DNA of 64,000 nt from Bacilli bacterium (GTDB lineage Bacteria > Bacillota_I > Bacilli_A > RF39 > UBA660), in NCBI GenBank assembly GCA_051872765.1, contig JBJEED010000091.1:17878-81877 (forward strand), in the 5' to 3' direction. Both the position numbers and the translations under genes were made by a program. This document shows, piece by piece, positions 1,006 to 35,900 of this stretch (its first letter is position 1; every line of letters begins with the position of its first letter). The notes under the pieces were generated by a model. It saw only the letters and a list, made by a program, of their open reading frames with translations, ran no database searches and was not told the DNA's origin.

Positions 1006-2451
1006 TTAATATTCAATTGAATCAACTAAATCATTAATTAATTCTAAATAACTATTATAGTTTGGAATATAATTATATATATTATTAATAAACTCTTTTC
1101 CAGTTATTTTATTACCATTTTTTAATTCTACTATACAGTTTTCTGGAATATTATCAATTATATTATTATCTAAAATATATTTCTTTATAGTTATACTAGT
1201 TCCATTTTTCAAGTTAACTATTTTATTAGCATATTCATCACTTATTATATATTCTGATATTATTTTATCTTTTTGATTAGTTTCTTTTTTTTCATAGTTA
1301 TCCATAATAGATAATAAATAATCCATTATTAATTTAATTTGTCTAAATGAAAAATTCATCTTTTTATATGCAAAATATAAACTTGACGATAATAATAATA
1401 TCTTATTTATCTTATCCATACTAGGATTTAATAAATCTAAAATATCTTCAATATTTTTATAATTATTAACTAATATGTTATCGAATGTATCATAAAATAA
1501 TTTATAATATTTATCACTTGTGTCCTTTTTTATTATATTCTCATAATACTTTGCATAAGCAATATTAAAAAAATCTTCACTTTCATATCTAATTTCAATA
1601 TTATTATCTTCTTTATCAATAAAATATATCATTTCATTTTCATCATACTTTATAATAAAATCATTTCCTTGAAAACTACTTAATTCCATTACTAAATTTT
1701 CTTCAAATAAATTAAATATATCATCATTATTATATATTATAAGTATATAATTATATAAAATATTTAACATTCTTTTTTTATTTATTTTTCTTTCATTTTT
1801 ATATAAAAATTCAATATATCTTAAAAATGATTCAATATTTATATCACTTTCATTCATATATTTAGAATAATAGTGGTACAAATACTTTATATAAATATTT
1901 TTAAAAGAATATGGGGATATCTCCGTATATACTCCTATTAAATTAATTTGATATAAAAAAGGTAATGTTCGAGATTTAACTAATTTAGATATTTCTTCTG
2001 ATTTTGTAAAATAATCTATTATTTTATTTGCATCGATTACTTTAAATACTCTCATTTGAAATATAGTATTTTTAAGTTTTTTATTTAATTTTATTGAAAA
2101 ATTAATATTATTTTCAAAACAATATTTAACTAAACTATTTGCAATAAATTCATAATTATCTTCAAATACAGGAATATCTAATAAAATATTATGTTTTTTA
2201 TTTTTTTTATCATCTATATTTTCAATATAAAAATAATTGTCATATTCATTATAAATAACATAATTTTTATTGAAATCTAGTTTTAACAAATCAGTAAATA
2301 TTTTTTTAGAAATAATTGAAATATCTTTTTTATATGATCCAATTGCTATATTATAACTTAATATTTTATTAACAAATGATTCAAAATTATTATCTTTATA
2401 ATATTCGAACATTGTTTTTAAATAATTTTCAAAATTAGTTTTTAGTTCCAT
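1006..2451 (-). CDS. Hypothetical N/K/Y-rich 481-aa protein, no recognisable family
   Basis: Long uninterrupted ORF in a genome where stop codons are very frequent. It sits between rpmH and dnaA. Confidence 0.5.
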   Translation of the reverse strand: MELKTNFENYLKTMFEYYKDNNFESFVNKILSYNIAIGSYKKDISIISKKIFTDLLKLDFNKNYVIYNEYDNYFYIENIDDKKNKKHNILLDIPVFEDNYEFIANSLVKYCFENNINFSIKLNKKLKNTIFQMRVFKVIDANKIIDYFTKSEEISKLVKSRTLPFLYQINLIGVYTEISPYSFKNIYIKYLYHYYSKYMNESDINIESFLRYIEFLYKNERKINKKRMLNILYNYILIIYNNDDIFNLFEENLVMELSSFQGNDFIIKYDENEMIYFIDKEDNNIEIRYESEDFFNIAYAKYYENIIKKDTSDKYYKLFYDTFDNILVNNYKNIEDILDLLNPSMDKINKILLLSSSLYFAYKKMNFSFRQIKLIMDYLLSIMDNYEKKETNQKDKIISEYIISDEYANKIVNLKNGTSITIKKYILDNNIIDNIPENCIVELKNGNKITGKEFINNIYNYIPNYNSYLELINDLVDSIEY

Positions 2452-2761
2452 ATTAACACCTAATTAATTTTATCATAAATTAAATGTTATGTTAATTTAT
2501 TTTTTTACACTTTATGTTAACTTATTAACAATATTTCAACATTTTATGTTAACTTATCAACAAGTTATTAACATAACACTATAAAGATATGTTAAAATTT
2601 GTTAATAATGTTAGTAACTCTTTTTAGGTTAATAAATAAAAGAAAAAAATGTTTACAAATTGTTTGGAACTTGTTAATATAAATGTTAATAAATTATTTT
2701 GTTTTGACATTAAAAAAAGATGATTTATAATAATTGTGTAAGTGTGAAGAAAGGAGAAATT
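2452..2761. promoter_or_regulatory. oriC-upstream region with DnaA-box-like 9-mers and the dnaA promoter
   Basis: A 22-bp direct repeat TTATGTTAACTTAT[T/C]AACAA occurs twice (about 2511-2532 and 2546-2566). It contains TTATCAACA and TTATTAACA, variants of the DnaA box TTATCCACA. TTGACA (2704-2709) and TATAAT (2726-2731) lie ahead of dnaA. Confidence 0.5.
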
Positions 2762-4147
2762 ATGACTACAGAAGAGTTATGGAAAGAATTTTTATCACGG
2801 ATAAGTAAACGAGTTTCTCCAATTACATATAATTGTCTTTTTAAAGATTTAAAATTGCATTCTTATAAAAACAGTAAATTTACTATAATAGTTCCTGATA
2901 GTAATAATAATGAATTGTATATACAAAATTTAAAAGATTCTTACAACATAATAGTTGAAGATATTGCTAATGATTTAACTAACGATACTTGTGAGATAGA
3001 ATATATACTACAAAAAGATATAAAAAAATTAGATGAAGAAGAAGAAAAACAAGAAAGTAATAATGATCAAATAGAAAATATTACTAATTATAAATATAAA
3101 AGTAATTTTAATCCTAAGTACACTTTTGATACTTTTGTAGTGGGTGAATCAAATAAATTAGCATATGGAACTGCTTTATCTGTTGCACAAAATCCAGGAA
3201 AATTATATAATCCATATTTTATTTATGCTAAAAGTGGTCTTGGAAAAACACATTTAATGCATGCAATAGGTAATTACATAGTTACACATTCAGATAAGAG
3301 AGTTTTATATATAAGTTCTGAACAATTCATTAACGACTATGTTTCTATAGTAAATACTAGAAATAAAAATAATAACAATATTACTTATTTAGAGGCTTTT
3401 AGAGAAAAATATAGAAATGTTGATGTACTAATGATTGATGATATACAATTTTTAGAAAAAGCTACCAAAACACAAATTGAATTTACAAATACTTTTAATA
3501 CATTATATGATAATGAAAAACAAATTATAATTGCATCAGATACTTCTATTAATGATTATAAATATTTAGAAGATAGATTAAAAACTAGATTTGGTTGGGG
3601 GTTAACGGAATCGATAAATCCTCCGGAATTTGAATTAAAAAAGAATATAATAAGAAAAAAAGTTATGCTTAATGATTTTCCACAACTAAATGAAGATGTA
3701 GTTGAATATATTGCTAATAATTGTGGAAGTGATATTAGAAATCTTGAAAATGCAGTAATTAGATTGGTTGCTTATAGAGTAACATTAAATATTAATGAAA
3801 TTACTTTAGAGGTAGCACAAAATGCTTTAAGAGAGTATGTAGGACAAGTAATATATAGAACTAATTCTGTTTCCAAAATTATTGATGTAGTAGCTAAATA
3901 TTATGGAATAGATTCTTCTATGATTAAAGGTAAAATGAGAAATAAAAATGTTGTTACAGCTAGATCTATTGCAATATACCTTAGTTGTTTAATGACTGAT
4001 GAAAGTCAAGAAAGAATAGGATTAGAAATGGGGGGAAGAGATCACTCGACAATAATTTATTCAAGGGATAAAATTACTGAAGAATTAAAAGTTAATTTAA
4101 AATTACAAGAAGAAATAAAAATTTTAAAAGAAAAAATTTGTGAATAA
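2762..4147 (+). CDS. dnaA: Chromosomal replication initiator DnaA (start taken at ATG 2762 after RBS AAAGGAG)
   Basis: Walker A GLGKTHL, conserved AAA+ core, C-terminal DnaA-box-binding domain. Position after rpmH. Confidence 0.95.
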   Translation: MTTEELWKEFLSRISKRVSPITYNCLFKDLKLHSYKNSKFTIIVPDSNNNELYIQNLKDSYNIIVEDIANDLTNDTCEIEYILQKDIKKLDEEEEKQESNNDQIENITNYKYKSNFNPKYTFDTFVVGESNKLAYGTALSVAQNPGKLYNPYFIYAKSGLGKTHLMHAIGNYIVTHSDKRVLYISSEQFINDYVSIVNTRNKNNNNITYLEAFREKYRNVDVLMIDDIQFLEKATKTQIEFTNTFNTLYDNEKQIIIASDTSINDYKYLEDRLKTRFGWGLTESINPPEFELKKNIIRKKVMLNDFPQLNEDVVEYIANNCGSDIRNLENAVIRLVAYRVTLNINEITLEVAQNALREYVGQVIYRTNSVSKIIDVVAKYYGIDSSMIKGKMRNKNVVTARSIAIYLSCLMTDESQERIGLEMGGRDHSTIIYSRDKITEELKVNLKLQEEIKILKEKICE

Positions 4148-4278
4148 ATCAACCAGTTATCAACAAACTAACAAATATAAAAAAATAGAAAACCCTGTTA
4201 ATAACTTAACATAAACTAGTTATCAACAATATCAACACTTAATAATAATATGATTTATATAAATAAGGAGGTAAAATT
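4148..4278. promoter_or_regulatory. dnaA-dnaN intergenic oriC segment with DnaA boxes
   Basis: TTATCAACA at about 4160-4168 and 4222-4230, plus TATCAACAC at 4232-4240, in AT-rich spacer. This is the typical Firmicute oriC/DUE location. Confidence 0.6.
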
Positions 4279-5397
4279 ATGAAATTAATAATTGAAAAAA
4301 ATATTTTAATGGAAGGATTAAATGCAGTAAGTAGAGCTTTATCTACAAGAAATATAATACCTGTATTAAATTGTATCAAATTTGATTTACAAAATAATGG
4401 ATTATATTTAACAGCAACAGATAATGATATAACAATTCAATATTATATTGATAAAAAAGATATAAAAAGTATTGAAGAAACAGGATGTTCTATTATTTAT
4501 GGAAAAACATTATTAGAGGTTATTAGAAAATTACCTGAAACAGATATTTTAATAGAAAATTTTGAAAATAACGAAGTATCTTTTAAAACAAATAATTCTA
4601 TATATAATTTTAATTGTTATATGGTTGAAGATTATCCAAACATTTCTTTAGAAGAAGGAAAAAATCCGATAAGTATATCAAGTAATAAATTTAAGGAAAT
4701 AATTAATAAAACAACATTTGCTTGTTCATTACAAGAAAGTAACCCTGTATTAACAGGTGTAAATGTAAAAATTCAAGGAGATTTATTTGAATGTATTGCT
4801 ACAGACTCATATAGAATTTCAAAGATTAATCTAAAATTAGATGAAATGTATATTGAAAATATAAATATCGTGATTCCAGCAAAAAATATAAATGAATTTG
4901 CAAAAATTATAAATTCTGATTCAAAAATGGAAATACATGTATTTAGTAATAAAGTTATATTTAAGTTAGATAATATTATTTTTCAATCATCATTATTGAA
5001 TGGAAATTATCCACAACTTGAAAATATTTTTCCAAATGAGTTTGAATATAAAATAAAAGTAAATTTAAAAGATTTCTACAATACTTTAGATAGGGCATCA
5101 TTATTAACTGGATCTAGTAAAAAATATATTATAGATGCAGAAATTAAAGATAATTATTTGAAATTAAAAGCATCAAGTGCAGAAATGGGTAAAGTAGAAG
5201 AAAAAATTAGTATAGAAAATTTAACTAATAATAATATATACATATCATTTAGTTCAAAATATGTGCTTGAATCATTGAAGATGTTTAGTAGTGAAGATAT
5301 ATATATATTATTAAATAGTGGTGTAAAACCATTTGTGTTAAAAGAAGTTGATAATGATAATTTTATTCAACTTGTATTTCCTATTCAAACTAATTAG
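4279..5397 (+). CDS. dnaN: DNA polymerase III beta sliding clamp
   Basis: 372 aa, beta-clamp three-domain pattern, directly after dnaA. Confidence 0.95.
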   Translation: MKLIIEKNILMEGLNAVSRALSTRNIIPVLNCIKFDLQNNGLYLTATDNDITIQYYIDKKDIKSIEETGCSIIYGKTLLEVIRKLPETDILIENFENNEVSFKTNNSIYNFNCYMVEDYPNISLEEGKNPISISSNKFKEIINKTTFACSLQESNPVLTGVNVKIQGDLFECIATDSYRISKINLKLDEMYIENINIVIPAKNINEFAKIINSDSKMEIHVFSNKVIFKLDNIIFQSSLLNGNYPQLENIFPNEFEYKIKVNLKDFYNTLDRASLLTGSSKKYIIDAEIKDNYLKLKASSAEMGKVEEKISIENLTNNNIYISFSSKYVLESLKMFSSEDIYILLNSGVKPFVLKEVDNDNFIQLVFPIQTN

Positions 5398-5584: not shown

Positions 5585-6046
5585 ATGAAATATGAAATCA
5601 ACTCAGATACTCAAGTAATCTTACCAATTAGTAAAGAGTGTACAAAGGTCATAGAACAGGGAGACGAATATATATTAAATATAGCTTGTCATGAAATATT
5701 AGAACATAGTTGTGAATATTTTGGTAGTTCATATGAAGGTAGAAAAGAAGGAACAAAGAAAATTTTAGGTATTACACATAAGGCTCCAATAATAATTGAA
5801 GAAAGTAGACAAATAATATTTTTTCCAACAACTTCACCAGATAATATTAACTGCGTATGGATTAATTTAGAAAAAATTGAAAAGTATTTTAAAACAGATA
5901 CTAGAAAATCAGCAATTATTTTTAAAGACGGAACAACATTAGAATTTAATATATCTTATGGATCTTTAACAAATCAAATAATGAGAGCAACAAGATTAAA
6001 ATATGTTTTAAATGAAAGATTAATAAAAAAAGAAGATAATAAATAA
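5585..6046 (+). CDS. comK: ComK-family competence transcription factor homolog
   Basis: 153 aa; CEYFGSSYEGRKEGT...ITHKAPIII...QIIFFPT...ISYGSL aligns block by block with B. subtilis ComK (CRFFGSSYAGRKAGT...ISHKPPIMV...QIFLFPT...ISYNSF). Confidence 0.8.
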   Translation: MKYEINSDTQVILPISKECTKVIEQGDEYILNIACHEILEHSCEYFGSSYEGRKEGTKKILGITHKAPIIIEESRQIIFFPTTSPDNINCVWINLEKIEKYFKTDTRKSAIIFKDGTTLEFNISYGSLTNQIMRATRLKYVLNERLIKKEDNK

Positions 6047-9160: not shown

Positions 9161-11650
9161 ATGATGGAAGAAGAGATGAAACAAGAAAATGAATTTAGTG
9201 GAAGTTTTCATGAAAGAGATAGTCATGCTGTAAATAATATTGTAGATGAAGTAAAAAGTTCATTTTTAGATTATTCTATGAGTGTTATAACATCTAGAGC
9301 TATTCCTGATTTAAGAGATGGATTAAAACCTGTACACAGAAGAATTTTATGGTCAATGTATGAAGAGGGAAATACACCTGATAAACCTCATAGAAAATCT
9401 GCAACAACTGTAGGTAATGTTATGGGACATTATCATCCACATGGTGATAGTTCTATTTATGAGGCTATGGTTCGTTTAGCTCAAGATTTTAATCAAAGAT
9501 ATATGTTAGTAGATGGACATGGAAACTTTGGTAATATAGAAGGAGATGGAGCAGCAGCTTATCGTTATACAGAAGCAAGACTTGCTAAGATATCATTAGA
9601 ATTATTAAGAGATATTAATAAAGATACAGTTGATATGGACGATAACTTTGATGTTACTAGAAAAGAACCTAAAGTTTTACCATCTAGATTTCCAAATATA
9701 TTAGTAAATGGTTCTTTAGGTATAGCAGTTGGTATGGCAACAAACATACCACCTCATAATTTAGGTGAAGTAATTGATGGATGCATAGCATATATCGATA
9801 ATCCTGATATTGATACTTTAGGTTTAATGCAATATATAAAAGGTCCAGATTTTCCCACAGGAGGAATTATTCTTGGAAACTCCGGTATAAAGAAAGCATA
9901 TGACACGGGAAGAGGTAGTATTACTATTAGGAGCAAGGCTAGTATTGAAGAAATACATGGTCATAATTGTATAGTAATTACCGAAGTACCTTATGGTGTT
10001 AATACTTTAGAATTAAAAAATAAAGTAGCTGAATTAGTCCATAATAAAATAATAGATGGAATAACAGATTACCATACTGACTTAAAAGATGGAATTAAGA
10101 TTACAATTACTCTAAAAAAAGACGCAAATCCTCAAGTAGTATTAAATAATTTATATAAACATACATCTTTTCAAATTAATTATGGAATAATATTCTTAAT
10201 GTTAGATGGTCTTACTCCAAAAACATTAGGTTTAAAAGACATAATTTCTAAGTATATTGATCATCAAAAAGTGGTTATTATAAGAAGAACAAAATTCGAT
10301 TTAGCAAAAGATGAGAGAAGAGTACATATTTTAAATGGATATAAAATAGCTCAAGATAATATTGATGAGGTAATTAAAATTATTAAATCTGCTAAAACAG
10401 ATGAAATAGCTAAAACTAATTTAATGAATCGATTTGGTTTAGATACTATACAAGCTGAAGCAATATTGGAATTAAAACTAAGACGTTTAACTGGATTAGA
10501 AAGAGATAAAATAGAAGCAGAATTAGCAGAATTATTAAAAGAAATAGAAGAATTAAAATCTATTTTACAATCAGAACAAAAAGTTTTAGATATTATTAAA
10601 AAAGAAATGCTTGAAATTAGAAACAAATATAGTGATGATAGAAGAACTACAATAGATATGACAGCAGTAGAATACATAGAAGATGAAGCATTAATTCCTC
10701 AGGAAGAAGTAATGATTACTTTAACAAATAAAAATTATATTAAGAGAATTGCCAAAAATACTTATAAGTCTCAAAATCGTGGAGGTGTTGGCATAAAGGG
10801 TATAACAACAACAGAAGAGGATTTTGTTGAACATTTAATTTCTGTTAATACACATGATTATATTTTATTCTTCAGTAATAAAGGTAAAGTTTATAGACTA
10901 AAAGGTTATAATGTACCAGAATATTCAAGAGCAGGTAAAGGATTACCAATTATCAATCTATTACAATTAGAAAAAGATGAAAGAATTAATGCTATGGTTA
11001 AGGTAAATAACGAAGATATAAACAAATGTTTGCTTTTGAGTACTAAAAATGGTTTGGTTAAAAGAACAAAATATGAAGACTATATTAATATAAGACAAAC
11101 AGGTAAAATAGCAATTACATTAAAAGATGATGATGAATTAATTTCTGCTAAAGTAACTGAAGGAGATAGTCAAATTCTAATGTGTTCATCAAATGGTAGA
11201 ATGGTTAGATTTAATGAAAATGAAATTAGAATTATGGGTAGGACAGCTTCTGGAGTTAGAGGCATAAACTTGAATGGTGATATTTGTGTTGGTACAGAAA
11301 TATCTAAACCAGGAAATCTATTATTAGTAGTAACTGAAAATGGATATGGTAAAAAAACTGAAATAGAAGAATATAGAGAAACAAAGCGTGGCAGTAAAGG
11401 TGTAAAGACAATAAATTTATCTGAAAAAAATGGTAAAGTAGTAGGTTTCAAGTCAACTCAAAACGATAAAGACGTAATGATTATTACAAAGAATGGTATA
11501 ATAATTAGAATGGATGTTAATTCTATTTCACAAATGGGAAGAGTAACAAAAGGAGTTAAATTAATTAATCTTAAAGATAATAATAAAGTTGCTTCTATTT
11601 CAATTGTTGATAAAGAGATAGTAGAAGAAGTTGAAGAAAATGCAGAATAG
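9161..11650 (+). CDS. gyrA: DNA gyrase subunit A
   Basis: Active-site Tyr region AAYRYTEARL, QRDR HPHGDSSIYEAMV, C-terminal beta-pinwheel repeats. Confidence 0.97.
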   Translation: MMEEEMKQENEFSGSFHERDSHAVNNIVDEVKSSFLDYSMSVITSRAIPDLRDGLKPVHRRILWSMYEEGNTPDKPHRKSATTVGNVMGHYHPHGDSSIYEAMVRLAQDFNQRYMLVDGHGNFGNIEGDGAAAYRYTEARLAKISLELLRDINKDTVDMDDNFDVTRKEPKVLPSRFPNILVNGSLGIAVGMATNIPPHNLGEVIDGCIAYIDNPDIDTLGLMQYIKGPDFPTGGIILGNSGIKKAYDTGRGSITIRSKASIEEIHGHNCIVITEVPYGVNTLELKNKVAELVHNKIIDGITDYHTDLKDGIKITITLKKDANPQVVLNNLYKHTSFQINYGIIFLMLDGLTPKTLGLKDIISKYIDHQKVVIIRRTKFDLAKDERRVHILNGYKIAQDNIDEVIKIIKSAKTDEIAKTNLMNRFGLDTIQAEAILELKLRRLTGLERDKIEAELAELLKEIEELKSILQSEQKVLDIIKKEMLEIRNKYSDDRRTTIDMTAVEYIEDEALIPQEEVMITLTNKNYIKRIAKNTYKSQNRGGVGIKGITTTEEDFVEHLISVNTHDYILFFSNKGKVYRLKGYNVPEYSRAGKGLPIINLLQLEKDERINAMVKVNNEDINKCLLLSTKNGLVKRTKYEDYINIRQTGKIAITLKDDDELISAKVTEGDSQILMCSSNGRMVRFNENEIRIMGRTASGVRGINLNGDICVGTEISKPGNLLLVVTENGYGKKTEIEEYRETKRGSKGVKTINLSEKNGKVVGFKSTQNDKDVMIITKNGIIIRMDVNSISQMGRVTKGVKLINLKDNNKVASISIVDKEIVEEVEENAE

Positions 11651-11942
11651 CATTTTCTTTTTTATATCATAATGTTTTATAAAGATATTTATTATATATA
11701 TTTTATATATATTTGCAAATATATGGTGTAAAATAAACAATTATATAAATGAATCTATATATGTATATATTGGGTAGTTATTTTAGATATATTAATTTTC
11801 TAATTAAGCTACAATAATGATATTTAAATAATACAAGATTAATAATCAAATATAAATAATTATAGTATTGTATCAATGTATTGAGTATTATTAACTTAAC
11901 TAATTTTTAATAACACATATTTTAAAATTAATTAATAAATTG

Positions 11943-12398
11943 CAAAAATTATTTCCCGGGAAATAATTTTTGATAATATTTAGATAAAGTCTAAGCTATG
12001 TTTCACATGAAACATAGCTATTTTAATAATATTAAAATTAAATATGTGTTAGTATATATATTAATTTAAAATATTATAATAATATAATTTCATATTTTAA
12101 TGTTTCACATGAAACATTATATAAATTAACTTTTTTTAATAATTATATAAATTATTTCCCGGGAAATAATTTTTGCATAATATTTAAATAAAGTCTAAGA
12201 TATGTTTCACATGAAACATATATAAATATTTACTTAAATAACTATTAAAATATTAGTTATAAATAAAAATAAGTATGATTGAAAAGTAATATGTAATATT
12301 TTATAAATAAAATACATATTTAAGTTTCATGTGAAACATAAAACTTAAATAGAAAAAAATAAAATTGTTTATCAATTAATATGTTTCATGTGAAACAT
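11943..12398. repeat. Cluster of five parS-like 16-bp sites (TGTTTCACATGAAACA) and two CCCGGG-centred perfect palindromes
   Basis: 18-mer ATGTTTCACATGAAACAT at 11998-12015, 12100-12117 and 12202-12219; inverted copies at 12322-12339 and 12381-12398. Perfect palindromes CAAAAATTATTTCCCGGGAAATAATTTTTG (11943-11972) and AAATTATTTCCCGGGAAATAATTT (12149-12172). An approximately 75-bp unit spanning palindrome to parS is duplicated. Confidence 0.6.
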
Positions 12399-12452
12399 AT
12401 ATTTTAAAAAAAATAATGATTGATTTTTTTTAAAATATAGTGTAATATATAT

Positions 12453-12525
12453 GCGTGCAACGAAAATGGTTTGAACCAGGTCAGAATCGGAAGATAGCAG
12501 CCTTAAAAAGCAAATTCGTGTGCAC
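12453..12525 (+). ncRNA. ffs: Small SRP RNA (4.5S/ffs-like)
   Basis: Conserved domain IV ACCAGGTCAGAATCGGAAGATAGCAGCC (E. coli 4.5S has ACCAGGUCAGGUCCGGAAGGAAGCAGCC). The 5' and 3' ends pair (GTGCAACGAA / TTCGTGTGCAC). Followed by a T-run. Lies next to tadA and dnaX as in Bacillus. Confidence 0.6.
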
Positions 12526-12545
12526 TTTTTTTATTAGGAGATATT

Positions 12546-12953
12546 ATGAATGAAATATTTATAAATAAATTAATTAAATTAAATCAAAAGGCATTAAAAA
12601 ATAATGATGTTCCTGTATCTTGTTTAATAAGTAAAAATAATGAAATAGTTTCTTATGCATATAATAAAAAAATAAAAAATAATGATCCTTTTGCGCACGC
12701 AGAAATATTAGCTATAAGAAAAGCAGCAAAAAAATTAAAAACATATAATTTAAGTGATTGTGAAATATATGTATCTTTATATCCTTGTAAAATGTGTCAA
12801 GAAGTAATAAACGAAGCAAGAATAAAAAAAGTGTATTATGTTTTAAATAAAAATAAAGATATAGTAAACACTACAAAATATATTAAAATAAAAACAGATC
12901 AAGAAATAAAATTCAGTAAAGAGTTAAGTGAATTTTTTCATGATAAAAGATAG
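12546..12953 (+). CDS. tadA: tRNA-specific adenosine deaminase
   Basis: CDA zinc motifs HAE (HAEILAIRKA) and PCxxC (PCKMC); 135 aa. Confidence 0.85.
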   Translation: MNEIFINKLIKLNQKALKNNDVPVSCLISKNNEIVSYAYNKKIKNNDPFAHAEILAIRKAAKKLKTYNLSDCEIYVSLYPCKMCQEVINEARIKKVYYVLNKNKDIVNTTKYIKIKTDQEIKFSKELSEFFHDKR

Positions 12954-12995
12954 TTAATTTATTATTAATTTGGTATAATTAATTTGGAGGAAATT

Positions 12996-14612
12996 ATGAC
13001 ATATATATCACTTTATCGAAAATATAGACCAAAAAAGTTTTCAGAAGTAGTTGGTCAAGATGTAATAATTAAAATTATTAAAAATAGCATTAAAAATAAT
13101 AAAATAAATCATGCTTACATATTTAGTGGTCCAAGAGGTACTGGAAAGACAACAATCGCAAAAATATTTGCTCGAGCTGTAAATTGTTTGAATTTTAAAG
13201 ATGATATTTGTGAAAAATGTGATAATTGTAAAAATGAAAATAATAATGAAATAGATATAATTGAAATTGATGCTGCTAGTAATAATGGAGTTGATGAAAT
13301 AAGAGAAATAAGAAATAGTGTAAAATATTTACCATCAAGTCTAAAATATAAAGTATATATAGTTGATGAGGTACATATGTTATCTTCAAGTGCATTTAAT
13401 GCACTATTGAAAACTCTTGAGGAACCACCAAGCCATGTAATATTTATATTAGCAACAACTGAATTTAATAAGATTCCCGCCACTGTGGTTTCAAGGTGTC
13501 AAAAGTTTGATTTTAAAAAAATTAATAATAAAACAATTATAGAAAGATTAAAATATATTTTAAAAGAAGAACATAAAAATGTAAGTGAAGATGTATTAAA
13601 TTTAATAGCTAAATTAAGTGATGGAGGATTAAGAGATTCAATTAATTTATTAGATCAAATTCTTTCAATTAATGAAGAAAATGTTACTACTGATCAGGTA
13701 TATAATTTAATTGGAGAATTGAGTGATATAGAAATTTCTAAATTATTAGAAACAATAACAAATGGAAATGTTAAAGAACTTTTAAATAGTGTTAATAAAT
13801 ATATAGATGAAGGAAAAAATTTAATTAGTATTGTTAATAAATTAGAAATATTAATAAGAAATATATTAATATATAATTCAACAGATAATTATTTTGATGC
13901 TGAATATGAAAATATTTTATCTAAATTTAATAAAATTGATATAAATAAAATATTTGAATTATCTAAAAATTTATTTGAATTAAATAATGAGTTAAAAAAA
14001 ACCAATAATCAAAAGATATTAATTGAAATATATTTTATTAAAACTACTTTATTATTTACAAATCAGTCAAATTATAAAACAAATGTTTGCCAAAATAGTG
14101 AAAATTTCACTAAAGATACTAATAGTAATGATGAATCTAATAACTATTCTTTATCCGACAATGATAAAAAAATAAATATTAATAATGCTTTGTCTGGTGC
14201 AAGTAAAGAACTAAAAAAAGATTTTATTAGTAAATTTAAAATTGTTGAAGAATATGTATCAAGTAAAGATTATAATTCAATTAGTAATTTATTACTTAAA
14301 TCAACTCCAGAGGTAGTATCAGATAAAAATATATTATTTACTTTTAAAAATAATTTTGAGGTAGTATTATTTGATAAAAATATAGAAGATATTCAAAAAT
14401 TTATAAATATGTTGTATAATAAAAAATATGTAGTTGTTGCAGTTAGTTCTGAACAATGGATTGATATCAGAGATGAATATATTAAAAATATAAGATCAGG
14501 CGTTAAATATCAATATATTGAAGAACAACCTAAACAAAAAAAAACTACAAAAAACACAGTGTTACAAGATAGTGTAGAAGATATATTTGGGAATGATTAC
14601 ACTACAATTTAG
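12996..14612 (+). CDS. dnaX: DNA polymerase III subunit tau/gamma
   Basis: Walker A GPRGTGKTT, zinc module CEKCDNC, clamp-loader AAA+ domain. Start taken at ATG 12996 after RBS GGAGG. Confidence 0.9.
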   Translation: MTYISLYRKYRPKKFSEVVGQDVIIKIIKNSIKNNKINHAYIFSGPRGTGKTTIAKIFARAVNCLNFKDDICEKCDNCKNENNNEIDIIEIDAASNNGVDEIREIRNSVKYLPSSLKYKVYIVDEVHMLSSSAFNALLKTLEEPPSHVIFILATTEFNKIPATVVSRCQKFDFKKINNKTIIERLKYILKEEHKNVSEDVLNLIAKLSDGGLRDSINLLDQILSINEENVTTDQVYNLIGELSDIEISKLLETITNGNVKELLNSVNKYIDEGKNLISIVNKLEILIRNILIYNSTDNYFDAEYENILSKFNKIDINKIFELSKNLFELNNELKKTNNQKILIEIYFIKTTLLFTNQSNYKTNVCQNSENFTKDTNSNDESNNYSLSDNDKKININNALSGASKELKKDFISKFKIVEEYVSSKDYNSISNLLLKSTPEVVSDKNILFTFKNNFEVVLFDKNIEDIQKFINMLYNKKYVVVAVSSEQWIDIRDEYIKNIRSGVKYQYIEEQPKQKKTTKNTVLQDSVEDIFGNDYTTI

Positions 14613-30668: not shown

Positions 30669-31232
30669 ATGAAAAAGCAAAGAAACACACAAATGCTGGT
30701 TATTGCAGTCTTAGCAATTGCGGTATTGACAATGTCAGTAGGTTTTGCGGCATTTACTCAAAGATTAGATATTAATAGTAATACTACAGTTGGTGTGTCA
30801 ACTTGGAATGTTAAATTTTTAACTGATAGTTTCACAGTAACTGATGGAAGCGTTAATGTAGATAGTGGTAACATAGTAATTACAGGTACATCTGTCACAT
30901 ATGAGGTTAAGTTATCTAAGCCTGGAGATTTTTATGAATTTACTATTAATGTTAAAAATTCAGGTACATTTAATGCTAACTTAGTTGGAATTACTTTAAG
31001 TTCTTTAACTGAGGCACAATCTAAATATTTAACTCACAAATTAACATATGATGGTGTAGAGTATACTCAAACAACATCTGGATTATCAAAAACATTAAAT
31101 GCAACTGATGGTGTTGCTAGTGTTAAAGTTCGTGTGGAATATGTTGCACCAGAAGATCCAAATGATTTACCACAGGAAGAAGTTCGTATACCTTTAACTG
31201 CATCTCTTTCATATGAACAAAAACCTGATTAG
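30669..31232 (+). CDS. TasA/camelysin-like secreted protein with SipW-cognate signal peptide
   Basis: N-terminus ...LTMSVGFAAFTQ matches the SipW-cognate class (TasA ...GGGTWAAFND); KLSKPGDFYEFTINVKNSG parallels TasA NLKPGD...FQFENNGS. A TTGACT-17-TATAAT promoter lies at about 30580-30608. Confidence 0.6.
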   Translation: MKKQRNTQMLVIAVLAIAVLTMSVGFAAFTQRLDINSNTTVGVSTWNVKFLTDSFTVTDGSVNVDSGNIVITGTSVTYEVKLSKPGDFYEFTINVKNSGTFNANLVGITLSSLTEAQSKYLTHKLTYDGVEYTQTTSGLSKTLNATDGVASVKVRVEYVAPEDPNDLPQEEVRIPLTASLSYEQKPD

Positions 31233-33560: not shown

Positions 33561-35900
33561 ATGTTAAAAAATCGAAATGTTATTATATATATATTTGTTT
33601 TACTAATTATTTCTTTTATGAGTGTAGGGTATGCATACTATGGACAATTGCTAGAGTTTTCTGGAAATATTAATTTAAAGCCAGATGGTAAATTTCGTAT
33701 AGATAATATAATACTTACGGATACTTCTAATGTTATAAGTAGTGTTCCACCAATTATTACAGATAATACAATTGAGTTTAATATAAGCTTTGGTGGTACT
33801 GAAAATGAGTATTATGCAATATATACAGCTGACTTCATAAATGAAAGTAGCTATAGTTATACATATAATTCTTTTAATTTTACGCCAATTGTTACCGCGA
33901 GTGGTGATGGAAGTGGACAATTATCTTTTGAAGTTAGTAATATTAATGATGGAGATGTAATTTCTCCTGGAGAGATTTTAACGATTACGTTAAAATTGAT
34001 TTTAGATGTAAGTGATTCTGAACAAACATATGATATAAATGCCAAGAGTGATGTTATATTGAATTATAATGAAAAAGGTTCTATTTTTACTAGTGTATCA
34101 CCATTATCTGTAGATTTAACTGGTACTAATGAATTAGCTTTAATTAATTTAGAGGTTATGAACACATATGGTAGAAATATTACTTTTAATATGAAATCTA
34201 GTAATAATAATTTTTCTTTAGTAAATAGTGATGGAACAGATTTAGGAAGTTTTACTATTTTAGCAAATAGTGTAGATGATTATCAAATATATTTGAAAAA
34301 GACAGATAATAGCGTGTTTTATGATTCTTCTGAGACTACAATATTAATATTACAATGTGGTACTTTAGGAAACTATAATACTAGTAAGATAACAGTTTCT
34401 GTTGATAAGTCAGAGTTAAGTGATACTAGTATTCCTGAAATTGGTGAAATTAGTTTTACTATAAATAATAATGAAGGACAGGCTGATCTTAATTGGAGTA
34501 GATTAGATAGTGGGGGCACTAGTATTATTGGTTATACAATATTACTTTATAATTCTACGAATGATACCTTAGTAAATACTTATAATACTAATAGTGACTT
34601 GACAAGTTATAGTATTACAGGTCTTGAAGAAGGAAGTTATTATGTTAAAATATATGGAACAGATCAAGCTGGAAATAATGGAAGTGGATATGTAAATGAT
34701 GCTACAACTAGTACAATTTATTGTCGTCAATCTTCTACTGTTGCTTTAAAATGGATATTTAATGTTACTAATAATTTAACTTATTTGACTTCTTCAGGTG
34801 CTAGTACTGCTTCATTAGGAAGTACATATACTGCAACATTATCGGTTTCAGGAAATGTAAGTTTGCCAACTTCTATTACAGTTACTATGAATGGTGTTAC
34901 ACTAGTAAATGGTACAGATTATACATATAGTAGTAGTACAGGACAAATATCTATTCCTAATGTAAATGGAGATATTACCATTACAGCTAGAGGAAGTGGC
35001 GTATGTTTAATTGAAGGAACAAAGATTAGTTTAGCTGATGGAAGTACTAAAAACATTGAAAATATAAGATATGATGATTTACTTCTTGTTTGGAGTTATG
35101 AAGAGGGGCGTATGGTATATGAATATCCTATTTGGATAGAAAAAGAACATAAAGCGCAATCTTATCAATTAACAAAATTCTCATCAGGAGATGAGTTAAA
35201 AACAATAGGATATCATGGCATATATAATATGGACCTTAATAGATTTGTTTCAGTTGATAATAGAGAAGAATTTGATGTTGGTACTAATGTTGCTATTATG
35301 AATGATGATAAAACAGGTTTTATATCTACTAGTGTAGTTAGTATAGAATATGTGTATGAAGAAGTAAATTATTATCATGTGGTTTCAACTAGATATTATA
35401 ATATAATTGCTAATAATATTTTAACAACTGATGGAACAGTAATATTATCTAATTTATATGGATTTGATGATAACATTATGTGGTTAAATAGAAATCAAGT
35501 AATTAATGATAAAAATAATCTTTATGATTATATAGAATTTAATGATATAATGCCATATTATATGTTTTCTGGCCTTAGAGCTAGTGAAGGTAAGTATTTA
35601 GCTAATTTAGGTTTTTTGAGTAAAGAAACATTTAAATATTATTTACTTCAAAATCAAATGAATAAAGAAATGTTGTTACCGCCAACTGTAAATAAAAATG
35701 GTATAAGACAATGGGTTGTAAAAACAAGTTTAGGATATGAAAGATTAATAGATGAGGGAAGTTATTTTTATTTAGATAATTCAAATACTTTAGGTAAAAA
35801 GATTTTATATTGGTATGATATGTCTACAGGAGTAAAATACAAACCTAATGAAAGAGTTAAAATATGGTATGGTACTTATTTTGAGGCTATATATGAATAA
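33561..35900 (+). CDS. Large secreted protein: SipW-cognate signal/TasA-like N-terminus, Fn3 domain, internal Hint (intein-like) domain
   Basis: N-terminus ...FMSVGYAYYGQ...NLKPDG; Fn3-like LNWSRLDSGGTSIIGYTILLYN...YYVKIYGTD; Hint block A CLIEGTKISLADGSTKNIENI...DLLLV at residue 482 and block F-like YYNIIANNILTTDG (about nt 35004-35435). Confidence 0.6.
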   Translation: MLKNRNVIIYIFVLLIISFMSVGYAYYGQLLEFSGNINLKPDGKFRIDNIILTDTSNVISSVPPIITDNTIEFNISFGGTENEYYAIYTADFINESSYSYTYNSFNFTPIVTASGDGSGQLSFEVSNINDGDVISPGEILTITLKLILDVSDSEQTYDINAKSDVILNYNEKGSIFTSVSPLSVDLTGTNELALINLEVMNTYGRNITFNMKSSNNNFSLVNSDGTDLGSFTILANSVDDYQIYLKKTDNSVFYDSSETTILILQCGTLGNYNTSKITVSVDKSELSDTSIPEIGEISFTINNNEGQADLNWSRLDSGGTSIIGYTILLYNSTNDTLVNTYNTNSDLTSYSITGLEEGSYYVKIYGTDQAGNNGSGYVNDATTSTIYCRQSSTVALKWIFNVTNNLTYLTSSGASTASLGSTYTATLSVSGNVSLPTSITVTMNGVTLVNGTDYTYSSSTGQISIPNVNGDITITARGSGVCLIEGTKISLADGSTKNIENIRYDDLLLVWSYEEGRMVYEYPIWIEKEHKAQSYQLTKFSSGDELKTIGYHGIYNMDLNRFVSVDNREEFDVGTNVAIMNDDKTGFISTSVVSIEYVYEEVNYYHVVSTRYYNIIANNILTTDGTVILSNLYGFDDNIMWLNRNQVINDKNNLYDYIEFNDIMPYYMFSGLRASEGKYLANLGFLSKETFKYYLLQNQMNKEMLLPPTVNKNGIRQWVVKTSLGYERLIDEGSYFYLDNSNTLGKKILYWYDMSTGVKYKPNERVKIWYGTYFEAIYE

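Follow-up and report, generated by a model that had tools for sequence, protein, structure and literature searches.

In Bacillus subtilis, the parS sites of the Spo0J/parS system are dispersed around the origin region (PMC7614844). Systems made of ParB, parS and SMC that do without ParA are documented in Streptococcus pneumoniae and Staphylococcus aureus, and the reasons for the clustering of parS and for its variable copy number (1 to ~23) are acknowledged to be unsettled (PMC7333895). Noc-binding sites (NBS) differ from parS at two positions per half-site (PMC7383237, PMC7333895), and the ancestral origin cluster of Firmicutes carries noc (PMC8136486). The window analyzed here, i.e., the whole stretch of 64,000 nucleotides (contig JBJEED010000091.1, positions 17,878 to 81,877) from a Bacilli bacterium of the RF39 lineage, harbored five parS-type sites and two NBS in the 793-bp spacer between the stop of gyrA (11650) and the start of ffs (12444), the gene of the small signal recognition particle (SRP) RNA. 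This spacer is probably a compact ParA-less centromere, with parS serving a ParB-type clamp and NBS serving a Noc-like clamp.

The array shares with B. subtilis Spo0J/parS the 16-bp palindrome TGTTNCACGTGAAACA, the proximity to the origin and, by analogy, a presumed loading of ParB clamps dependent on cytidine triphosphate (CTP). Unlike in B. subtilis, all parS detected in the sampled DNA were confined to one spacer of 0.06 to 1.5 kb, and the soj-spo0J operon was not beside rsmG. As in S. pneumoniae and S. aureus, no ParA was encoded at the origin locus, but these two species have an identified ParB while none was located here, and no literature report of a tight tandem parS array or of interleaved NBS was found for them. 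Several parS are also grouped near oriC in Corynebacterium glutamicum, Caulobacter crescentus, Pseudomonas aeruginosa and Streptomyces. There, the clusters include genes and are kilobases to tens of kilobases long, whereas the present array runs head to tail in one spacer, with periods down to 36-39 bp in relatives and two site types mixed. Head-to-tail short ParB-family sites within a few hundred bp recall plasmid centromeres such as sopC of the F plasmid, a tandem-repeat centromere, but the array is chromosomal, lies in a conserved housekeeping context, is built from the parS sequence of chromosomes and stands without a parAB operon beside it. No literature description of a composite natural parS/NBS array was found; what is described are chromosomal clusters of looser layout and tandem arrays made by engineering. 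A compact clustered centromere is unusual for Firmicutes, and what goes beyond the textbook is the combination of a tight, re-amplified parS array in this phylum, its constant mixing with NBS, a helix-less Noc-type clamp and a two-residue switch.

Composition of the array between gyrA and ffs

The 16-mer TGTTTCACATGAAACA was found in four exact copies and in a fifth with a single mismatch (at 12323), where the original prediction, made from the letters of the window, had counted five identical copies. The first three, parS1 (11999..12014), parS2 (12101..12116) and parS3 (12203..12218), read exactly on the forward strand, with the central CG of parS changed to CA, and their predicted spacing of 102 bp was exact. 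parS4 (12323..12338) reads AGTTTCATGTGAAACA on the forward strand, with an A at an outer base as its mismatch and TG at the centre, and parS5 (12382..12397) reads TGTTTCACATGAAACA on the reverse strand and TGTTTCATGTGAAACA on the forward strand. These last two copies had been described as inverted; the positions given for them were right, but the orientation amounts only to the central CA versus TG of a site that is otherwise palindromic. Similarly, a difference from the Firmicute parS consensus TGTTNCACGTGAAACA at the central position alone was found for four copies (1 mismatch), and not for the fifth (2 mismatches). When up to two mismatches to TGTTTCACATGAAACA were allowed, 0.12 matches were expected by chance in the window, the observed number was reached by no shuffle, and no further copy was present elsewhere in the 64 kb. 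Judged by their sequence, the 16-mers of the window are identified as parS sites.

The gap had been taken for otherwise featureless, and two exact NBS had been missed. The core ATTTCCCGGGAAAT occurs at 11951-11964 and 12154-12167 (0.10 copies expected in the window), within NBS1 (11950..11965) and NBS2 (12153..12168), both of which read TATTTCCCGGGAAATA and have no strand. Each NBS precedes a parS by ~35 bp. The two pairs belong to a duplicated unit on the forward strand (11917..12220), composed of 100-nt direct repeats at 11917-12016 and 12121-12220, each with an NBS, a spacer of ~35 bp and a parS; a repeat search displayed 76% identity between them overall and 100% in both cores. A permissive Rfam scan of the gap returned the SRP RNA only, and no credible open reading frame (ORF) was found in the gap.

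Conservation of the array among relatives

Relatives were gathered by a GyrA scan, with one genome per species (80 loci, GyrA identity of 71 to 99%). They consisted of uncultured, AT-rich gut metagenome-assembled genomes (MAGs) labelled Bacilli, Tenericutes or Erysipelotrichaceae, including Clostridium sp. CAG:302 and Candidatus (Ca.) (Allo)scybalousia; NCBI places Ca. Alloscybalousia in Bacilli incertae sedis. All DNA sampled in this work was origin-proximal.

A parS array was present directly after gyrA in almost every relative, mostly with a CACGTG core and 0 mismatches to TGTTNCACGTGAAACA, and exact NBS often lay between its parS sites. Synteny of the array was kept across relatives, a few lineages placing it between tadA and dnaX. 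Across 77 loci with 1.35 Mb of flanking DNA, 313 of the 315 parS-type sites fell within the gyrA-dnaX gap, and the two counted outside sit at the gyrA stop codon; the density was 3.74 per kb in the gap versus 0.0015 per kb outside, i.e., about 2,500-fold higher. The rarity of the site elsewhere, on which the original prediction depended, was thus borne out in the window and in the origin-proximal DNA of its relatives. At least two parS were found in 55 of the 60 species whose gyrA-dnaX gap was complete (maximum 11, span of 62 to 1458 bp), and both site types were found in the gap of 46 of these 60 species. NBS were 33-fold enriched in the gap and were also scattered outside it, at ~one per 26 kb. 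A metagenome scan for parS located 2-32 nt from an NBS led to the low-GC gyrA/tadA/dnaX locus in 118/120 cases among the matches listed.

The period of the array unit was 36, 39, 53, 105, 117 or ~156 bp depending on the lineage, and parS and NBS alternated, stood in blocks or, in a few lineages, gave way to pure parS tandems. Because periods and unit order differ between lineages, the arrays were amplified independently, and the clade offers dozens of natural replicates of extreme parS clustering in which to ask why sites cluster and vary in number. No helical phasing of parS-parS spacings was detected (Rayleigh R = 0.02); the weak parS-NBS phasing (R = 0.24) is confounded by the duplicated units and is not used as support.

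A single NBS also recurred ~6.5-7 kb downstream of gyrA (L026:19424, L028:19245, L035:19039, L041:19068, L044:18988, L051:19204 and L072:19141, as locus and position), which suggests that individual scattered NBS are conserved as well.

Selection on the sites and origin of the CACATG centre

The closest comparison was provided by a MAG of the same species as the window (L011, GyrA identity of 99%). Motif columns were 96% identical between the two and spacers 62% (Fisher p = 2e-13), the motif value leaving out one site decayed in L011. NBS1, parS1, NBS2 and parS3 were kept at 16/16 positions, while the decayed site, parS2, retained 9/16 and shows copy turnover within the species; in another strain (L004), one of parS4 and parS5 was lost through a 59-bp deletion. 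This pattern of substitutions indicates that selection acts on the sites. Together with the arrays of 0-mismatch TGTTNCACGTGAAACA at the same position in relatives and their near-absence elsewhere in 1.35 Mb, the maintenance of the sites while the spacers drift upholds the parS identity first proposed.

The CACATG centre had been read as a variant shared by all copies. Site 4 of L011 (AGTTTCACGTGAAACT) retains the ancestral CACGTG centre, whereas at site 5 of this MAG the transition occurred on the strand opposite to that of the window (CACATG). Across the clade, the centre of parS-type sites was CG in 308/330 and CA or TG in 22/330, and NBS displayed the same kind of centre variation. Since relatives mostly carry the canonical CACGTG core, CACATG is a derived local variant, i.e., the product of recurrent CpG-to-TpG/CpA transitions on either strand at a position that appears to be tolerated, and not as a distinct class of sites.

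The window has ~23% GC, and CpG is strongly depleted in it (0.37), as is ACGT (20 observed vs 33 expected, 0.60). CpG depletion and the under-representation of ACGT, which does not extend to CCGG, could explain why parS centres changed and NBS centres did not, the signal being weak; that the CACATG centre arose through avoidance of a restriction site is suggestive only. More generally, GATC (observed/expected of 0.58) and ACGT (0.60) were the most depleted 4-bp palindromes of the window and CCGG was over-represented (2.2), which may reflect species-specific restriction-modification or methylation pressure.

Noc-type ParB-family protein of relatives

The parAB genes had been expected on the other side of oriC. 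The contigs found for the window species on that side were at most 9 kb long and all ended within mnmE; the far side was reached through the MnmE of close relatives, with the nearly full MnmE of L017 as query. In every relative examined (6 lineages), the order was mnmE-mnmG-rsmG followed by just one gene of the ParB family, of Noc type and encoding 332-366 aa, with neither parA nor a second parB beside it. The parA-parB operon near oriC that characterizes ParABS systems was found in none of these relatives.

The best family match of the protein was Noc (TIGR04285, 267 bits, below the cut-off of 315), and Noc chains of the PDB scored 202 bits versus 158 bits for Spo0J. It harbored the ParB_N and HTH_ParB domains (PF02195 and PF17762), an ENLQR motif invariant among homologs and, in 117/120 of them, the CTP box GERRYKA instead of GERRWRA, in which both arginines are kept and the last R becomes K; by these features it would belong to the ParB/Noc CTPase clamp superfamily. 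Published specificity rules state that R173 is invariable in parS binders, that Q173 reads adenine-1 and R201 cytosine-6, and that one lysine, at either 179 or 184, suffices (PMC7383237). At residues 173/179/184/201 the protein displayed Q-K-N-R in 4/4 species (ParB, R-T-A-G; Noc, Q-K-K-R), Q-[K/R]-x-R in 119/120 close homologs and Q..R in 150/150 of the best cluster representatives, with N184, a K in classical Noc, unusually well conserved. Because of Q-K-N-R under these rules, and because Noc of B. subtilis neither responds to nor loads on parS DNA (PMC8429893), the predicted target of the protein is NBS, not parS.

The start of the protein lies ~20 residues later than that of Noc, with in-frame stops 4-11 codons upstream and a ribosome-binding site present, and in 120/120 homologs only 4-11 residues precede the first conserved strand. 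The 10-aa N-terminal amphipathic helix of Noc targets the membrane and is required for nucleoid occlusion (PMC8429893). Since the start is fixed downstream of the position of a helix needed for that function, the predicted protein could not be a classical Noc. It also contains a long low-complexity linker.

The system thus resembles Noc-NBS of B. subtilis and S. aureus by the exact NBS core, by Q173, K179 and R201 in the reader of relatives and by the presence of scattered NBS. Its gene stands directly after rsmG, a position that noc has in B. subtilis. Unlike Noc, the protein lacks the helix, has N184, GERRYKA and the long linker, and falls below the family cut-off, and the NBS are concentrated in a parS array. 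It separates the two defining properties of Noc, the NBS-reading residues and the membrane helix, and homology alone does not justify annotating such proteins as "ParB" or "Noc". We infer that the window species itself carries the gene; one candidate for its own copy (P0279) was rejected, as it came from another sample series.

In the nearer relatives of the window, the gene following the Noc-type gene was always a Band_7_1 gene (SPFH, PF13421; L097:15214-16410, L099:15122-16321, L100:15161-16351, L101:15308-16534), absent from the L222/L225 lineage. That its product could be a membrane partner replacing the Noc helix is pure speculation.

A candidate specificity switch

One protein, P0358 (L222:4681-5679, also in L223 and L224), read R-K-N-G in three independent assemblies and was the only exception among the 120 close homologs. 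It was nested in the Noc-type tree, with nearest neighbours that were all Q-K-N-R and shared 88-89% identity with it across the N-terminal and DNA-binding region. P0358 and its Q-K-N-R sister P0349 (L225:182-1204) occupied the same position downstream of rsmG, and exactly two differences, Q173R and R201G, separated their DNA-reading segments. Taken at face value, these residues make P0358 a natural specificity switch at the level of orthologs. No close R..G family emerged when cluster representatives were searched with P0358, the best 150 being all Q..R, and no link of this lineage (L222) to a gyrA array was found, the best MnmE match being 65-70%.

In the same lineage, mnmG was fused to an N-terminal GNAT acetyltransferase domain and encoded 787 aa versus ~620 aa elsewhere (L222:1563-3926, L223:1509-3872).

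Readers of the array

The clade displayed 330 pure parS-type sites, 159 pure NBS-type sites, 0 parS/NBS heterodimeric sites and 9 odd ones, and positions 1 and 6 were strictly coupled within and between half-sites. Such statistics argue for two separate homodimeric readers. An outgroup, a Firmicute metagenome contig of 49% GC (L187), harbored a spacer with 4 parS and 1 NBS (L187:1443-2380) between a Q..R noc and soj-spo0J, in which spo0J was R..G, so that mixed parS/NBS clusters also occur inside a canonical par locus. The two-class site statistics, this noc/spo0J pair and the known ParA-less ParB-parS-SMC systems lead us to infer that parS is read by a canonical ParB (R173/G201) whose gene lies elsewhere in these genomes.

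In the proposed mechanism, the five parS would load a ParB-type CTP-gated DNA clamp, and the two interleaved NBS would load a second clamp, the Noc-type ParB-family protein. By analogy with described clamps, dimers would nucleate on the palindromes, bind CTP, close to clamps and slide onto the adjoining DNA, so that a dense nucleoprotein complex would form ~8 kb from oriC. Because the canonical position encodes no ParA, the parS complex would most likely act as in S. pneumoniae or S. aureus, recruiting SMC to the origin region, with no transport driven by ParA. Both the array and scattered NBS would be loaded with the Noc-type protein, which, because it lacks the membrane helix of Noc, would probably be no classical membrane-tethering nucleoid-occlusion factor. 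A clustered centromere, as originally predicted, remains the best reading at the level of the sites. The clade makes it testable how a single loading zone is shared by two CTP clamps, what role a helix-less Noc has and whether specificity switches occur in nature.

Several points weigh against this proposal. A parS-reading ParB gene (R173, small residue at 201) was not found in ~2.7 Mb of origin-proximal DNA, neither within 10 kb on either side of mnmE in 6 lineages nor in 764 kb of metagenome loci, the outgroup L187 excepted. ParB and ParA homologs were likewise absent from the 64-kb window and from the 10 kb on either side of gyrA in 80 relatives, by motif and phmmer searches in which the Spo0J and Soj queries were approximate; the first motif pattern would miss GERRYKA, and the phmmer runs would not. 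Tolerance of the CACATG centre by ParB is argued only from the 22/330 parS-type sites with CA or TG, and the recruitment of SMC is pure analogy.

An alternative with a single reader, in which there would be no canonical ParB and the Q-K-N-R protein with its short N-terminus would load on both NBS and parS in a one-clamp centromere, is unlikely. It would account for the presence of only one ParB-family gene in every origin region examined, for the very large and uniform family (best 150/150 representatives) and for the high conservation of N184, unlike the K of classical Noc; P0358 with R-K-N-G shows, moreover, that the scaffold can evolve to read parS and that there is an advantage in doing so. 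However, every parS binder of the published mutational scan had R173, Q173 preferred A at position 1, and Noc of B. subtilis was unresponsive on parS DNA (PMC8429893). A tolerant protein should also allow hybrid or heterodimeric sites, and none of the ~500 sites was heterodimeric, 9 being odd.

It is also rather doubtful that the clade has neither ParB nor ParA and that a helix-less, Noc-derived clamp serves a parS/NBS point centromere, with lineages toggling between specificities via Q173R and R201G. If true, chromosome partition would be built from a Noc descendant, and the experimentally mapped path from ParB to Noc would have been replayed in reverse.

The sites could instead be relics of a reduced-genome lineage that lost ParB, with parS copies decaying without a reader. 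The absence of a ParB gene from the sampled DNA, the mutation of all five window centres from CG, the decay of one site in L011 and the deletion of another in L004 fit such a loss. Yet besides the centre, 14/16 positions are perfect in four window copies and 13/16 in parS4, with spacers down to 62%, and arrays are kept or expanded (to 11 copies) in 55/60 species at GyrA identities of 71-99%. Unselected 16-mers would not survive such divergence at 2,500-fold the background density, and this explanation is highly improbable.

Equally improbable is that the sites are mainly operators, at which a ParB-family protein would repress or insulate ffs, tadA-dnaX or gyrBA in a KorB-like manner, segregation being secondary or absent. 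Only 22 bp separate the end of parS5 from the downstream putative -35 of ffs (TTGATT, 12420-12425, with -10 TAATAT at 12443-12448, forward strand, read by eye from the sequence), in a stretch invariant between the window and L011, and the array always lies between strongly expressed housekeeping units. However, the arrays vary freely in spacing, in their number of copies (2-11) and in whether they precede or follow tadA, which a loading platform fits better, and promoter-like matches in the gap (17) did not depart from shuffles (16.1).

A selfish or structural repeat, i.e., one akin to miniature inverted-repeat transposable elements or repetitive extragenic palindromes (MITE/REP-like), a hairpin or a terminator, that resembles parS by chance is hardly credible: a terminator-like hairpin is scored for parS1 and its flanks, with a weak Rfam miRNA-hairpin match, and the sites lie inside tandemly duplicated units, but they are not dispersed, occurring neither elsewhere in the window nor in the 1.35 Mb of relatives, conservation is limited to cores of 16-18 bp, these cores match two independently defined protein-binding consensuses exactly, and no Rfam family reached threshold.

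Genomic setting near the origin

The array lies ~8 kb to the right of oriC, since GC skew switches near 2 kb and DnaA-box-like sites are clustered at 4139-4347 in the dnaA-dnaN spacer; its description as adjacent to oriC was therefore fair. The oriC region (2452..4347) includes dnaA (2720-4147). The upstream boundary of the array is formed by gyrA (9161..11650, forward strand, NCBIfam NF004043, 1129 bits), at the end of which the terminator scan placed a terminator-like hairpin (11633-11660). The downstream boundary is formed by ffs (12444-12540, forward strand, Rfam RF00169, 52 bits), followed on the same strand by tadA (12546-12953) and dnaX (12984-14612). The window order was rnpA on the reverse strand, dnaA-dnaN-comK-recF-gyrB-gyrA, the array and ffs-tadA-dnaX-ybaB-recR, then the order of the right arm of B. 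subtilis, with spoVG-yabP-divIC-tilS-ftsH present. The ychF-rpsF-ssb-rpsR block, where spo0J sits in B. subtilis, was looked for in the window and was not present.

Other features of the region were recorded. A ComK-family gene (5585-6046, forward strand, PF06338, 161 bits) lies between dnaN and recF, a position kept across the clade; in B. subtilis this slot holds a small S4-like gene. An ORF of 481 aa (1006-2451, reverse strand), located beside oriC between rpmH and dnaA, matched no Pfam or NCBIfam family and was limited to a subset of relatives (L011-L013, L019, L021, L069, L073). Two more ORFs on the forward strand (33561-35900, 779 aa, and 30669-31232, 187 aa) had no Pfam match in a region otherwise composed of well-annotated housekeeping genes. 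Short-read assemblies of the window species all break ~360 bp into mnmE (L007:8690-9055, L010:5504-5866, L091:1949-2308), just to the left of window position 1, and the closest database matches to the MnmE N-terminus were all truncated proteins at contig ends. In three loci (L057:148-9926, L047 and L050) the origin was rearranged, with dnaN-dnaA inverted and mnmE directly upstream of recF with no comK between, and the parS array downstream of gyrA was kept.

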